Below are positions 2,011-53,959 of a stretch of DNA of 64,000 bases, piece by piece. The translations under genes and the position numbers were made by a program. A model generated the notes under the pieces. The model did no database searches. It saw only the letters and a program-made list of their open reading frames with translations, and was not told the origin of the DNA. Location of the stretch: the NCBI RefSeq assembly GCF_963921235.1, contig NC_086108.1, positions 12,462,001 to 12,526,000 on the forward strand. The letters are read 5' to 3'. The DNA comes from Mobula hypostoma. Lineage: Eukaryota. The first letter of the stretch is position 1. The number at the start of each line of letters is the position of its first letter.

Positions 2011-4745
2011 AAGACCATAATACCATAAGGTATAGGAGCAGAATTATTCCATTTGGCCCATCGAGACCACCATTTTATCATGGCTGATCTAATTTTCCTC
2101 TCAGCACAAATAACCTGCCTTCGCCCCATATCCCTTCATGTCCCAACCAATCAAGAATCTATCAGCCTCTGCCTTAAATATACAGTGCATAAAGACTTGA
2201 CCTCTACCACTGCCTATAGCAAAGAATTCCACAGGTTCTTCATTCTCTGGCTGAAGAAATTCCTCTTCACCTCCGGTCTCAAAGGCCATTCCTCTATTCT
2301 GAGGCTGTGTCCTCTGGTGTTAGGCTCTCCCATCATCGGAAACATCTTCTCCACATCCACTCTATGAAGGCCTTTCACCATTCGAAAGATTTCAATAAGG
2401 TCACCCCTCATTCTTCTGAACTCTAGTGAATACAGTCCAAAGCCATCAAACACTCTTCATATGATAAACCATTCAATCCCAAAATAATTTTTATGATCAT
2501 CCTTTGAACCCTTTCCTGCTTCAGCACATTCTTTGTTTTTTTGTATTTTCTCTCCATTTAGAAGATAGTCAACCCTTTCATTTCTTCTATCAAAGTGCAC
2601 GAGCACATGCTTCACAACTCTGTATTCCATCTGCCACTTCTTTGCCCATTCTTCTAATCTGTCTAGGTCCTTCTGTAGCCTCTCTGTTTCCACAAAACTA
2701 CCTGCCCTTCTATCTTCATATCGTCTGCAAACATTGCAACAAAGCCATCAATTTCATCATCCAAATCATTGACATATAACATAAAAAGAATCAATTCCAG
2801 CACAGACTCCTGGGGAACAGCACTAGTCACCGGCAGCCAGCCAGAAAAGGCTCCCTTTATTCCCACTCTTTGCCTCCTGGCAATTAGGCACTGATTTATC
2901 CATGCTGGGACCTTTCCTGTAATATCATGGGCTCATAGCTTGTTAAGCAGTCTCATGTGTGGCACCTTGTCAAAGGCCTTCTGAAAATCCAAGTACACAA
3001 CATCCACTGATTCCCCTTTGTCTATTCTGTTTGTTATTTCTTCAAAGAATTCCAACAGATTTGTCAGGCAAGATTTTCCCTCTAGGAAACCATGCTGACT
3101 ATGGCCTATTTTATCATGTGCCTCCAAGACTTCATCTGAATAATCGACTCCAATATTTTCCCAACCACTGAGGTCAGACTAACTGGTCTATAGTTTCATT
3201 TCTTCTGCCTCTTTCCCTTCTTGAAGATTGGAGTGACATTTGCAATTTTCCAGTCTTCCAGATGATTGATTCTTGAAAGATCATTATTAATGCCTCTACA
3301 ATTCTTCAGCAAACTCTTTCAGAACTCTTGGGTGTACACCATCTGATCCAGGTGACTTACCTTCCTTCAAACCTTTCAGTTTCCTAAGCACCTTCTCCCT
3401 AGTAACTTCACACACTTCATGAACCCTGACATCTGGAACTTCCACCATAGCTAGTGTCTTCCACAGTGAAGAATGATGCAAAATACTTATTCAGTTCATC
3501 CGCCATTTCATTGCCCCCCATTGCTACCTCTCCAGCATTGTTTTCCAGTGGTCTGATATCCACTCTCGCCCCTCTTTTACATTTTATGGATCTGAAGTGT
3601 GAGGGGATACTGGAGTGCCCCGATGAACTGTTTGAAGTGAGACAGAGAGAGACATTCATCATTGATGCTTTGTTTGGAAAGGAGAGAGAGAGACGAAGAT
3701 TAACGGTTGGACTGTCACTTTAAGGCATTGGAAGTAACTTTGGATTTCTACTGAGTTTGGAGTTGGAGACAGCACCGAGCAGCTCGAAGGTTGCTATGGT
3801 GACCAAAGGCAGATCGTTGATGTTACTTTCAAGGACTTGTCACCTGCTTGCACTCCTTTACAGACAAAGGAGAGAGGGACTCTTTGAATGACAGGTGATG
3901 TTCAGCCTGGTGAAATAAATGAGAGGTCAGATGATACAGACCTCAGACACATGATCCAGACACTGTATGAGCATTGTTGTGCCCGCAGAAAAAGTGGGTT
4001 TTGGAGGATCGATCAGGTGGATTGATCCAAATTGCTATTCCATCGGTGAAGAAGGGGTTGACTGGTAGGGAGCTGTCTATGTGTCCACCCTTGCCTGGGT
4101 GATAGCTCCACCACAGAAGACCGGGCCCCCTGGTTAAAGTCACAATTGATGACTTGTAAAGGATTTCGGAGGACGACGAGAAGAGGAATGGTATCAGCTC
4201 ACCTAAGCACTCAACTCACTCTCTCTCTCTCTCCATCACTACTCAACTAAATACCACAAACTGAACTGAACTGAACTTTACTCAACATCGTAAGACTGTA
4301 TCTTTTAACCCCTAGACTTAAAGAAGCTTGGAGTTACTAATAAATATTATTAGTTGTTAGCAATACGAGACTCCAAAGTGTTTTCCATCTCTGCTGGTTT
4401 CTTAACCCCTGTCACGGGGTACGTGACAGAAGAAACATTTGGTATCCTCTTTAATATTATTGGCTAGTTTAATTTCATATTCCTTCCTTGCCTTCTTAAT
4501 GACTTTTTAGTTGGCCTTTAAAAACCTCCAATCCTCTAACTTCCCAATAATTTTTGATATATTATATGCCCTCTCTTGGGCTTTTATGTTGGATTCGACT
4601 ACTCTTGTTAGTCACGCTTGTGTCATCTTTCCTTTAGAATACATCATCCTCTTTGGGATGGATAGATCCTGTGCCAAATTGCTTCAAGAGATTCCAGCCA
4701 TTGCTGCTCTGCCGTCATCTCTGCCAGTATTCTTTTCCAAACAAT
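2011..4745 (-). mobile_element. Degenerate CR1 LINE (ORF2 RT region to 3' tail), interrupted by a solo LTR
   Basis: ORF fragments 'QHGFLEGKSCLTNLLEFFEE...VYLDFQKAFDKVPH', 'KSPGSDGVHPRVLKE', 'MFADDMKI'; accataa-type tail at ~2011. Confidence 0.9.
3598..4428 (+). mobile_element. Solo LTR (TG...CA, 831 bp) with 4-bp TSD GAAG
   Basis: tctGAAG|TGTGAGG...CGTGACA|GAAGaaac; CR1 sequence is continuous across it; 3' end matches the element at 52062-52880. Confidence 0.8.
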
Positions 4746-23327: not shown

Positions 23328-23634
23328 GTTGGCGCATGGCCAAGTGGTTAAGGCGTCAGTCTAGTGATCTGAAGGTCGCTAGTTCAAGCCTCAGCTGAGG
23401 CAGGGTGTTGTGTCCTTGAGCAAGTCACTTTACCACACATTGCTCTGCGACGACACCAGTGCCAAGCTGTAACGGCCCTAGTGCCCTTCCCTTGGACAAC
23501 ATCGGCAGCACGGAGAGGGGAAACTTGCAGCATGGGTAACTGTCGGTCTTCCATACAACCTTGCCCAGGCCTGCTCCTTGGAAACCTTCCAAGGCGCAAA
23601 TCCATGGTCTCATGAGACTAACGGATGCCTATAA
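23328..23634 (+). mobile_element. tRNA-derived SINE with CORE-like centre and RTE-like tail
   Basis: A box TGGCCAAGTGG, B box-like AGTTCAAGCC, 'gtgtccttgagcaagtcactt', tail 'gagactaacggatgcctat'; second copy at 53630-53955 (minus). Confidence 0.8.
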
Positions 23635-25384: not shown

Positions 25385-26550
25385 AGAGGGAGGCGCACTG
25401 CCATAGGGCAGTACAGAAGAAACTATGCATCTCTGTGCAAAGGGAGCCATGCACTGCCCCAGGACAGTTCAGAGGGAGCCGTGTATCTGTGTGTAGAGGG
25501 AACTGCACATTACCTCAGGGCAGTTCAGAGGGAGCCGTGTATCTGTGTGTAGAGGGAACTGCATATTACCTCAGGGCAGTGCAGAGGGAGCCGTGTATCT
25601 GTGTGTAGAGGGAACTGCACATTACCTCAGGGCAGTGCAGAGGGAGCCGTGTATCTGTGTGTAGAGGGAACTGCACATTACCTCAGGGCAGTGCAGAGGG
25701 AGCCGTGTATCTGTGTGTAGAGGGAACTGCACATTACCTCAGGGCAGTGCAGAGGGAGCCGTGTATCTGTGTGTAGAGGGAACTGCACATTACCTCAGGG
25801 CAGTGCAGAGGGAGCCGTGTATCTGTGTGTAGAGGGAACTGCACATTACCTCAGGGCAGTGCAGAGGGAGCCGTGTATCTGTGTGTAGAGGGAACTGCAC
25901 ATTACCTCAGGGCAGTGCAGAGGGAGCCGTGTATCTGTGTGTAGAGGGAACTGCACATTACCTCAGGGCAGTGCAGAGGGAGCCGTGTATCTGTGTGTAG
26001 AGGGAACTGCACATTACCTCAGGGCAGTGCAGAGGGAGCCGCGTATCTGTGTGTAGAGGGAACTGCACATTACCTCAGGGCAGTGCAGAGGGAGCCGTGT
26101 ATCTGTGTGTAGAGGGAACTGCACATTACCTCAGGGCAGTGCAGAGGGAGCCGTGTATCTGTGTGTAGAGGGAACTGCACATTACCTCAGGGCAGTGCAG
26201 AGGGAGCCGTGTATCTGTGTGTAGAGGGAACTGCACATTACCTCAGGGCAGTGCAGAGGGAGCCGTGTATCTGTGTGTAGAGGGAACTGCACATTACCTC
26301 AGGGCAGTGCAGAGGGAGCCGTGTATCTGTGTGTAGAGGGAACTGCACATTACCTCAGGGCAGTGCAGAGGGAGCCATGTATCTGTGTGTAGAGGGAACT
26401 GCACATTACCTCAGGGCAGTGCAGAGGGAGCCGTGTATCTGTGTGTAGAGGGAACTGCACATTACCTCAGGGCAGTGCAGAGGGAGCCGTGTATCTCTGT
26501 GCAGAGGGAACTGCTCTGCCTTAGGGCAGAACAGAAGGAGCCGTGTATCA
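25385..26550. repeat. 56-bp minisatellite, about 20 copies
   Basis: Unit agggagccgtgtatctgtgtgtagagggaactgcacattacctcagggcagtgcag; near-identical core, degenerate edges. Confidence 0.97.
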
Positions 26551-42159: not shown

Positions 42160-42568
42160 CTCCACATCCACTCTATCCAGGCCTTTCAACATTGAATCGC
42201 TTTCAATGGGATCCCCCTCATTCTTCTAAATTCCATTAAGTACAGGCCCAGAGCCGTCCAATGCTCCACATATGGTAACTCTTTCATTCCAGGGACCATT
42301 CTAATGAACCTCCTCTGACCTCACTCCTACGTCAGCAGATACAAGGGGCTCAAAACAGCTCACAATACTCCACGTGAGGCCTTGTCTGTGCTTCATAATG
42401 CCTCAACATTACTTCTTTGCTATTTTATTCTTGTCTTCTCGAAATGAATGCTAACATCATATTTGCTTTCCTCACCACCAACACAACCTGCAAATTAACC
42501 TTTAGGAAATCCTGTATGAGTAGTCCCAAGTTCCTTTGCACCTCAGGTTTTTGAAATTTTCTCTCCAC

Positions 42569-42772
42569 TTCAAAATTTGCTTTGTTGTTCCTTTTTGTGC
42601 CATGTGGCATTTTTTGATGTTTCCTCAGCATTTGTCTGTTTTTTACGAGGCCAGATAGCTAGCTTGATGCTCAACCCAGCACAGATGGAAAACGTGCAAG
42701 GGGCCGGTCGGATTCAAACCCGGGACCATTCGCCTAAAAGTCCATTGCTGATGCCACTACACCACCAGGCAG
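42569..42772 (-). mobile_element. tRNA-derived SINE
   Basis: A box TGGTGTAGTGG and B box GGTTTGAATCC on the minus strand; inserted in CR1. Confidence 0.75.
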
Positions 42773-42852
42773 CATTTAGAAAATAGTCTATGCTTTTACT
42801 TCTTTTATCAAAGTGCATTACCATGCACTTCCTGACACTGTATTCCATCTGC

Positions 42853-43440
42853 TGTGGGTCAAATAGCTGTTGTGATGCGTCTAGTGTGGTAGTATAGTGG
42901 GTAGCGCTTGTCACTCTCACTTTCAGCTTCCAGCACTGGCTAGCAGTTTCACGAAAAGGAAAGCTGAAGGTGTAAGTCTCTCCCTGCCAGTACATAGCCT
43001 CTCCAACAGCAAGCCTCATGTGGTGCCTCCTTGCTGGCGACACATGGAAACTGAACTCCTTTCGGACTCGGGCTGAACTGCAGAGTATGGGGAGGAGGTC
43101 TGGCCCCTGCACGTAGCACACAGGCCCATCAGTGAACCAGTTCCCCAGCTATTGGTAACTAGCCCCACTGCCTTGAGGGCAGTCTCGGGTGAGAAGAAGA
43201 CCACGGGAGTAAACTCAGACAGAAAATCCAGAGTGAAGCTCTTAAGGCAGTTGGACATCACTGACCATCCTTCCGGCAGCTCCGGCTGCCAAACTGGTGC
43301 CAAATACATTGGTTCACTTTTTTTTGGACTACACTGGTGAGGCTGAGAGGAGGATCTTAATGACTGGGCATCCCAGGATCTCCATATGTTTCACCCAGGC
43401 TTGAACTCCTTTGTTCTTCAAGACAGAAAGATGCCATCAC
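42853..43440 (+). mobile_element. Non-autonomous RTE-like retroelement (5' UTR + 3' tail, no ORF)
   Basis: Interrupts CR1 with imperfect duplication tattccatctgc / cattctacctgc; 3' part resembles the tail of the SINE at 23328; RTE assignment is inference. Confidence 0.6.
42875..43082 (+). ncRNA. HDV-like self-cleaving ribozyme motif
   Basis: P1 AUGCGUC(42875)/GACACAU(43039); P2 UGUGGU(43019)/ACUGCA(43077); P3 GCC/GGC with L3 UCCUUGCU; P1.1 CC/GG(43046); P4 hairpin 43048-43072; J4/2 CUGA with candidate catalytic C at 43073. Confidence 0.75.
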
Positions 43441-45919
43441 CATTCTACCTGCCACTTCTTTACCCATTCTCCTACTCTGCCTCAATCCTTCTGTAGCTTC
43501 TCCACTTCCTCAACGTTACCTGGCCCTGCATCTACCTTCGTATCATCTGAAAACTTGGCTGCAAAGCCATCAAATCCATCATCCAAATCATTGACACGTA
43601 ACATGAAAAGAAGTGACCCCATCACAGACCCCTGTGGAACAACACTAGTCACCACAGCTAAACTGAAAAGGTTCACTTTATTCCCACCTTTAGCCTCCTG
43701 CCAATTAGCCAATGCTCTATCCTTGCTAGTATCTTTCCTGTAATACCATGACCTCTTAACTTATTAAGCAGTCTCATGTGTGGCACCTTGTCAAAGGCCT
43801 TCTGATAATCCAAGTACACAACCTCCACCAATTCTCCTTTGTCCAGCCTGTTCGTTATTTCTTCAAAGAATTCCAACAGATTTGTCAGGCAAGATTTTTC
43901 CTTGAGGAAACCATACTGATCGTGACTTATTTTATCATCTGCCTCCAAGTACCCTGAAATCATACCCTTAGCAATCGATTCCAACATCTTCCCAACCACT
44001 GAGGTCAGGCTAACTAGGGTATAATTTCTTTTCTTCTGCCTCACTTCTTTTTGGAAAGTGGAGTGATAGTTACAATTTTCCAGTCCTCTGGAACCATGCC
44101 AGAATCTATTGATTCCCGAAAGATCATTACTAACGCCTCCATAACCTCTTCCACCACCTCTTTCAGAAAACTGGGGTGTAGACAATCTGGTCCAGGTGAC
44201 TTATCTACCTATCAGTTTCCCAAGAACCTTCTCTCTAGTAATGGCAACTTCACTCACTTCTGTCTCCTGACACTAAAAAATCCTTCATACTGCTGGTATC
44301 TTCCACAGCAAAGAGTGATGCAAGATACTTAATCGGTTTGTCCACCATTTCCTTGTCTTATTACTACCAATCCAGGACTATTGTATCTTCTCCCTATTAT
44401 ATATGATTCACAATATTATACCCTTCACTGCTATATACCCTCACTTCATCATTATATACCATTCACCAGCATATGCTCCAACATCCTATACGCTTCACTA
44501 TTATATACCATCATTATTACATACCCTTCAGCACTACATACCCTCAACTACTAAGAGCGCCTAGTGTAGACAGGTGGGAGGAGGGAAGAATTTCTATACT
44601 GCTGGACCTTCTACAGAGAACAGTTTACAAGAAGATAAATGGCGGGGTGGGGAAGGATCAGATAAGGTTGGCCTGAGACTGGAATGGACTTCTTCAATGT
44701 TGTGAACAGATATGAAAGATGCTCTTTCTTTTAAAGTAAGATAACATCTGTGTACAATCTGTTACTGATGTCTTTTATGTCAGCAGAAAGCAGGACCAAA
44801 ATATCAATCAATAATTCTTAATATTTATAAATGAATGTAATATTGTGATAGACAGGCTATGAAATGTCAGCTGATGCAGCAATCTCTCCGTTTATTGAGT
44901 GTTTCAATTACCTGTGGCTTTGGCAATCGAACGGCGCTGATATAATGCACAGTGAGCAAGTTTGAAAGAACATTGTGACATTGGGACCCTAAAGATTTTG
45001 CAAGGTTGTACCTATCAAACCACTCCCTGGCTGGGCAAGTCTGAGATGATGTGGACACTGCTATATAATTTCTCCAACCCTTCAACTGTTCCATTTCTGA
45101 CCACTATTTCCTGAGTTATCGTTAAACCCAGCACAGACCCATGGTTCTGTCCTGGGCCCAACATACTGAGGCAATCACAAACAAGGCATACCAAAGTTCA
45201 AAGTTCAAAGTAAGTTTTATTCTCAATTTACAGGTAACAACCCTGATTCTGATACGGGTCTCGATTGTGGACTGAGAGTGGGAAAGGGGCAGGGAGGGAG
45301 CAAAAGGGGGACATTCTGTAATGATCAATAAACCAATTGTTTGGAATCAAATGATCTTGCCAGGCGTCTCAGGAATGGGTGGGTCTGCACCCGCACCACC
45401 CCCTCCCCAACTCGCCCCTGTCCCACACCCTGCCCATGGCACTCCACCCTCACCATTCCCAAAATCATTTGCTCCCACCAGATTTACAAACTCACTCTCT
45501 GCTCAACATTGACAGATACAGAGCTATGCAAAAGTTTAAGACACCCTAGCTATACATACTGCATGTGCCTAAGACTTTTGCACAATTCTCTGTGCCTTTG
45601 GATAATCTTGCTGCTACAAATCATCAGATTTCATGTCAGATAAGAGAGTGATAATAAACCTGACTTTGATTCTGAATAAACCTAATAAATATTGATGTTG
45701 TTTGCAGGTCAGGATTTTACGCAGATCTTCATTTTGATGGGCCATTAGTACAAGGGCAGTGATGGAACGTCATGCAGCAGCTATGGTAAAACTGAAAGGA
45801 TTACTTGGATTAGGGCTGATCCCACTTCTGCTCACAGAATTTACAAGGTTGCTTGTCTGCAGTTGCTCACCTCATTAGCTACCATTCAATTCTCTCAGGA
45901 ACGTAGCCCGTATGAAACT

Positions 45920-53629: not shown

Positions 53630-53955
53630 TACAATAAATAAATAAAGGCATTTGTTAGCCTTGCAAGACCATGGATCTGCACCTGGAAAGTCTTCACTCT
53701 CCAGGGCACAGGCCTGGGCAAGGTTGTATGGAAGACCAGAAGTTGCCCATGCTGCAAGTCTCCCCTCTCCACGACACCAATGTTGTCCAAGGGAAGGGCA
53801 TTAGGACCCATACAGCTTGGCACCAGTGTCGTCGCAGAGCGCTGTGTGATTAAGTGCCTTGCTCAAGGACACAACATGTTCCCTCAGCTGGGGCTTGAAC
53901 TCACGACCTTCAGGTAGCTAGTCCAATGCCTTAACCACTTGACCACGTGCCCACA
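53630..53955 (-). mobile_element. tRNA-derived SINE (copy of the 23328 family)
   Basis: Collinear reverse complement, with (ttta)n tail. Confidence 0.8.
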
Positions 53956-53959
53956 CAAG

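Follow-up and report, generated by a model that had tools for sequence, protein, structure and literature searches.

A decayed bipartite RTE-type element headed by a predicted large HDV-like ribozyme

In R2 SIDEs, a 5' ribozyme is joined to the 3' end of a LINE by internal deletion, and the resulting elements are moved in trans (Eickbush and Eickbush 2012; PMC3414825). Bipartite, ORF-less RTE LINEs have also been described, e.g. RTESINE1/2, MAR4_MD, WALLSI3 and Bov-A, and the retained 5' end of these derivatives has already been linked to a ribozyme (Kojima 2018; PMC5786205). The HDV-like ribozymes found at the 5' ends of RTEs and other LINEs (Ruminski et al. 2011, via PMC6765202 and PMC5786205) and drz-Agam-2-1 (Webb et al. 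2016; PMC4908430) share a nested double pseudoknot, a large J1/2 closed by P1.2 and an extended P2. They are cut at the first P1 base, and for the large drz-Agam-2-1 ribozyme P1.2 and the extended P2 were reported to accelerate the reaction (PMC4908430). AviRTE and related aquatic RTEs have a 5' UTR of ~0.8-0.9 kb, a single EN+RT frame of ~3.1-3.2 kb and a 3' UTR of ~40 nt, and bipartite derivatives are known there too (Suh et al. 2016; PMC4844689).

We analysed a window of 64,000 nucleotides of the Mobula hypostoma genome (the whole stretch of DNA under study, to which positions refer unless another locus is named). The insert described here is, in our judgement, probably a decayed non-coding copy in which two ends of an RTE-type LINE from the same genome, the 5' UTR start and the 3' tail, are joined, with a first 230 nt that are predicted to form a large HDV-like ribozyme, likely freeing the RNA at its own first base. 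Set beside the published systems, the layout of 5' ribozyme and LINE 3' end is that of the R2 SIDEs, from which the family departs in having an APE-type, RTE-like parent LINE, dispersed insertions instead of rDNA targets, thousands of copies and ~320 nt of additional 5' UTR. Like Kojima's bipartite LINEs, the element combines an RTE 5' end and 3' end with no small-RNA head; it differs in family and host, and in that the ribozyme fold and predicted cut site are mapped. Compared with the RTE/LINE ribozymes and drz-Agam-2-1, the P2 extension is broken by a bulged A, an abundant subfamily (A) has a 6-bp bulged P1, and activity is predicted. The parent layout resembles the one described for AviRTE, although AviRTE SINEs carry added promoter heads; six family motifs were absent from the nine supplements of PMC4844689. 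The same six motifs were absent from one supplement of PMC5786205.

The sequence-only reading had called the element possibly undescribed. For the family this stands in so far as we found no report of it in the literature; Repbase, Dfam and Ruminski et al. 2011 lay outside the comparison, so that a name or listing may already exist. For the kind of element it does not, R2 SIDEs and bipartite RTE elements having been described before. The family reveals neither a new ribozyme class nor a new kind of mobile element, and offers a clean, vertebrate-scale example of the known principle that a ribozyme and a 3' tail suffice to ride RTE machinery.

A bipartite element and its parent LINE

The insert has a length of 589 nt and is flanked by an 11-nt target duplication (Table 1); the boundaries 42853..43440, as proposed from the letters alone, were accurate to within 1 nt. 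In an uninterrupted homolog of the host repeat at window 2624-2634 the two host halves overlap by 11 nt, and this overlap identifies the duplication. The host is an RT fragment of a LINE, which we take to be of CR1/L2 type, lying on the strand opposite to the element and separate from the RTE-type rows in a small RT tree. The longest ATG-initiated ORF in the element has 32 aa on the + strand and 97 aa on the - strand. As expected of bipartite non-autonomous LINEs, a target duplication and a microsatellite tail are both present. A search for a Pol III SINE head (tRNA, 5S, 7SL) gave no tRNA, no Rfam match and no B box on the + strand; the head corresponds to the 5' end of the LINE and is not derived from a small RNA.

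Table 1. Positions of the element, its insertion site and the predicted ribozyme parts in the window
Feature	Position	Strand	Remark
Left target-site duplication, 11 nt	42842..42852	+	9/11 identical to right duplication
Right target-site duplication	43442..43452	+	
Whole non-autonomous element	42853..43441	+	T42853 is a single extra base before predicted G1
Interrupted host LINE fragment (RT)	43442..44375, resumes 42773-42852	-	RVT_1, E 4.5e-10
Part from parent LINE 5' UTR	42854..43403	+	75-80% identity to heads of L122, L153, L154, L156, L161, L164
Part from LINE 3' end with decayed (ATC)n tail	43404..43441	+	80-82% match to 3' ends of L154, L155, L161, L164
P1 5' strand GTGGGTC (subfamily B/LINE form GTGTGTC)	42854..42860	+	predicted cleavage 5' of G42854
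J1/2, 158 nt, closed by P1.2 stem 42866-42872 / 43004-43010	42861..43018	+	holds ATGCGTC 42875-42881
P2 5' strand 43019-43024 and likely 4-bp extension 43014-43017 past bulged A	43014..43024	+	
P3 (GCC/GGC) and 8-nt L3 TCCTTGCT (family form TCCTCGCT)	43025..43038	+	C43029-C43030 form P1.1 5' strand
P1 3' strand GACACAT (family GACACAC) and P1.1 GG	43039..43047	+	
P4 hairpin	43051..43071	+	one A-U pair is G-C in both relatives (L172, L173)
J4/2 CTGA with predicted catalytic C43073; P2 3' strand 43077-43082; extension 43083-43086	43073..43086	+	

The proposal of a non-autonomous family, devoid of ORFs and linked to a LINE of RTE type, was borne out in that its parent LINE turned up in the same genome. 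We reached it by way of a junction motif and locus L108, in which the UTR continues into EN and RT remnants and which gave access to 12 more loci. Two pieces of this decayed LINE make up the element, ~550 nt from the start of its 5' UTR and ~38 nt from its 3' end. In L154 the LINE measures ~4.05 kb; it shares head (76-81% identity) and tail with the element, and has a 5' UTR of ~900 nt and a broken EN+RT frame that matches homolog P0001 over its full 1047 aa. The layout of L153, L160 and L161 is similar, and every parent copy that was fetched is broken. The RT piece of L154 gave 860 protein matches, the best 71% identical and many of them EN+RT proteins of ~1045 aa; the few with a named source belong to molluscs, lancelets, shrimp and fishes. 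Relatives encode EN and RT in a single frame of ~1045 aa. In the small RT tree, which includes no named reference RTE, the parent groups with a DUF6451-type element and apart from the host RTs; architecture, similarity and this tree together suggest the RTE-type label.

An intact element obtained from a DUF6451 search (L061) was considered as parent and rejected, since no DNA similarity to the family was seen in any of the 34 loci compared (30 of 145 fetched, plus four longer regions). This unrelated, possibly young family is represented at L061:1760-4813 (-) by a 1018-aa EN+RT+DUF6451 element that has no stops and ends in a (GAA)n tail.

A first look at the 3.48-Gb genome gave at least 2991 candidate relatives, and the 40 that were scored are 79-84% identical to this copy. 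From 75 fetched loci with a full head we dropped 13 same-place duplicates, which left 62 copies for analysis. At non-CpG sites, their divergence from the majority is 8.1% (range 3.8-13.4%; this copy 5.7%), so that the family looks old; it also looks extinct. The 3' junction of this insertion is also covered by contigs of a second organism, with 10 differences in 224 nt, and the insertion likely predates the split from that organism. Contigs from two runs guessed to be RNA match other family copies and indicate neither transcript start nor level. The 35 copies of subfamily A share a TGATGAT junction and an (AACC)n tail and start with GGTGTC; the 17 of subfamily B, LINE heads included, retain a longer stretch of UTR, end in an (ATC)n tail and start with GTGTGTC. 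Ten copies were left unassigned, among them this one, which combines a B-type head and tail with a shorter junction. A tail-pattern search gave 126 matches, and all 30 that were fetched had no LINE body before the tail (18/30 were full length).

Further observations concern the insertion site and its surroundings. A T precedes the first G in most copies (19/29 at the column of 42853), possibly as a non-templated base or a target preference. Another copy, at L117:930-1600, occupies the identical nucleotide of this host repeat family but has a different junction; compared with window 42842-43452, it probably reflects either independent insertion into a favoured site or a duplication long ago. 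Within the same host repeat, at window ~42560-42772, there is a further insert with a T run and a possible minus-strand B-box, which contigs skip. Just 3' of the ribozyme (window 43100-43140), the copies show many differing small deletions.

The HDV-like core and its covariation

The core GCCTCCTTGCTGGCG at 43025, GACACAT at 43039 and GG at 43046-47 were all found where the sequence-only reading had placed them, and P4 (43051-43071), CTGA (43073-76) and ACTGCA (43077-82), the latter pairing with TGTGGT at 43019-24, were borne out as well. As in HDV-like ribozymes, P1, P1.1, P2, P3 and P4 occur in nested double-pseudoknot order, with a conserved L3 and a C in J4/2. We take the C equivalent to C43073 to be catalytic, and C43073, which is kept as C in 55/62 copies and in the distant relatives L172 and L173, is the likely catalytic base, as had been predicted. 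J1/2, which had been put at ~135 nt, spans 158 nt. Its closing stem P1.2 was returned by RNAalifold unprompted, with 92.4% of cells paired and two-sided change in 4/7 pairs; the likely 4-bp extension of P2 is 88% paired, with weak statistics.

CpG decay had been invoked for most mismatches and wobbles. This account held for L3 (C at 43032 in 44/62 copies) and for T43045 (C in 41/62). It failed for P1 at 43042, where 59/62 copies have A, so that there was no ancestral GACGCAU, and for P2, where A is found at 43022 in 49/62 and at 43080 in 55/62 copies and the family form is a perfect TGTAGT/ACTACA. The core is hardly more conserved among copies than J1/2 (7.3% vs 8.3% non-CpG change), which, as expected, fits dead copies but is uninformative.

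For distant relatives, we kept 80 metagenomic RTE loci, of which 37 had upstream DNA. A homologous head was present in only two of these 37, L172 (66%) and L173 (75%). With the strict descriptor of the nested pseudoknot, L172 alone was matched among the 37 5' regions; L173 was matched only with a relaxed P1. In L172, P2 is TAGCCAT/ATGGTTA and P3 is ACC/GGT, and a 7/7 P1 candidate lies at the apparent start, one of four candidate P1 strands in total. In L173, GGTACTC at the aligned terminus pairs with GATACT around one bulged base. Two-sided change occurred in 12/31 pairs (helices P1.2, P2, P3 and P4, with P1 weak) and in 0/500 shuffles was it as high, a statistic in which kinship can beat such shuffles and whose signal comes almost wholly from L172 and L173. 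Of the helices proposed for a covariation check, P2 and P4, and also P3, covary in L172 and L173; column-wise, P1 is weak (2/7 pairs, all resting on metagenome loci).

These data bear on whether the HDV-like appearance could have arisen by chance in an RTE 5' UTR. Rfam scans returned no ribozyme family match, even at E<=10, for which the 158-nt J1/2 may be the reason. Free folding of 42854-43082 gave an ordinary stability (z -0.28) and formed neither P1 nor P2; since free MFE folding is unable to show pseudoknots, it is uninformative for an HDV-like fold. The descriptor found exactly one core on the + strand of the 64-kb window (43025) and none on the - strand, and two cores in 30 dinucleotide shuffles of one strand (~0.07 per shuffled 64-kb strand), a rate at which an isolated chance hit is conceivable. 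Chance would, however, also have to produce a perfect 7-bp P1 at the very terminus in the B/LINE form, two-sided changes in five helices across relatives and the same topology in L172 and L173, and we find it scarcely credible.

The P1 strand and the predicted cut site

In the sequence-only reading, ATGCGTC at 42875 was the 5' strand of P1, the cut lay 5' of 42875 and ~22 nt of the insertion were retained as a leader upstream of it. The motif is present at 42875, but its role as P1 partner fails, and the family data favour GTGGGTC, the first 7 nt of the element. Within this copy, both strands pair 6/7 with GACACAT at equal duplex energy (-3.6 for the 42875 strand vs -3.5 for the terminal one). 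The 42875 strand also reaches at least 6/7 pairs in 7/35 subfamily A copies, and its mean pairing per copy in this subfamily is 4.49/7, vs 3.97/7 (straight) or 4.2/6 (bulged) for the terminal strand. By contrast, none of the 16 scorable B copies reaches 6/7 at the 42875 strand, and GTGTGTC, with which subfamily B and the LINEs begin at their exact 5' end, pairs 7/7 Watson-Crick with GACACAC. Counted from the 5' end, P1 comprises 7/7 pairs in the B/LINE majority, 6/7 in this copy and 6 bp in subfamily A, whose terminal strand GGTGTC requires a bulge.

Other comparisons agreed with the terminal strand. In alignment A2 (this copy, 14/17 B copies and the two relatives; L096, L127 and L136 were omitted for deleted or decayed heads), 81.4% of cells were paired in the terminal P1 vs 58.5% in P1 at 42875, and constrained folding gave -54.8 vs -42.4 kcal/mol. 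The covarying P1.2 stem starts upstream of 42875, and in L173 the 42875-equivalent strand is unchanged despite a different P1 3' strand. CpG decay creates, rather than erodes, pairing at 42875: before decay the strand was by inference ACGCGTC, with 4/7 pairs to GACACAC, and decay, with two CpGs in this strand, leads towards ATGTGTC/GACACAT with 7/7 pairs, so that the strand looks good in old copies. Finally, copy 5' ends had been expected to pile up at 42875. With the end left free between -40 and +40 of 42853, the target duplications of all 13 callable copies (of 50 tailed ones) end at -17 to +13, and none near +22. We consider a P1 at 42875 with a retained leader very improbable; the cut is instead predicted 5' of 42854, with one base, T42853, before it.

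Since copies begin at the P1 strand, their 5' ends would mark the cut, and the one-base P1 difference between the two subfamilies is a natural test of how much P1 distortion an HDV-like ribozyme tolerates. An alternative is that the ribozyme is a passenger from the LINE and that the short element, above all in subfamily A, owes its 5' end to an RNA polymerase II promoter inside the 5' UTR. In its favour, subfamily A spread widely despite the loss of one P1 base; L1Tc is described as carrying both a ribozyme and an internal promoter (PMC3185411) and bipartite LINEs are argued to be Pol II transcripts (PMC5786205). Against this, the A copies L005, L065 and L087 still start with the G that opens a possible bulged P1 of 6 bp, in L173 P1 is likewise 6 bp long and bulged at this position, and a promoter would need a transcription start that coincides with G1. 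We judge this alternative unlikely.

In the favoured reading of an element freed by its own ribozyme, the RNA would be transcribed by read-through from host DNA, and the ribozyme would fold and cleave 5' of G42854 using C43073, with the P1.2 stem and the extended P2 pinching P1 and P2 together across J1/2. The LINE endonuclease/RT would then recognise the retained 3' tail and copy the freed RNA in trans by target-primed reverse transcription; a role of this kind is given for RTE ribozymes in PMC6765202. As for this copy, the suggestion that it may be inactive is in line with its P1 G-A mismatch and two P2 wobbles. It keeps P3, P1.1, the C at the catalytic position and all six P2 pairs and is among 10/62 copies with an unbroken core, but single P1 mismatches have been linked to little or no cleavage (PMC3774820), and it would likely be impaired, slow or dead.

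Heads of related RTEs and other repeats

At L168:400-480 and L184:50-270, a different HDV-like-looking head lies upstream of the shared UTR module (by eye with a one-pair P1.1 and a tiny P4), which suggests head swapping among related RTEs. A second cluster of 5' ends was seen at family positions ~277-322 (window ~43120-43165), with unrelated flanks, in 11/27 junction-motif loci, 4/13 LINE loci and 3/30 tail loci (L100, L102-L104, L106, L110-L113, L119, L121, L155, L158, L159, L162), and many metagenomic relatives are homologous only from about this border onward. RT stalling at a stable hairpin was considered as its cause and was unsupported (z -0.66 to +1.49 in 5 sequences).

Subfamily A has a bulged 6-bp P1, and L173 has an independent bulge on the opposite strand. 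We propose, tentatively, that large HDV-like ribozymes pinched by P1.2 might work in vivo with a bulged substrate helix, and that the ~300-nt head might be a swappable module. The module idea is based on related RTEs that share the UTR only downstream of the head and carry other HDV-like heads, and on the many copies that begin at the border.

Elsewhere, L064:1056-4124 (+) holds long frames of 750 and 272 aa beside an RTE fragment, which we take to resemble LTR-retroelement pol/integrase. A tRNA-like stretch at window 23335-23397 (+), just at the Rfam threshold and with an inverted repeat of it near 53700-53956, is likely a SINE head. At window 25460-26549 lies a 56-bp minisatellite of 19.5 copies with 98% matches.
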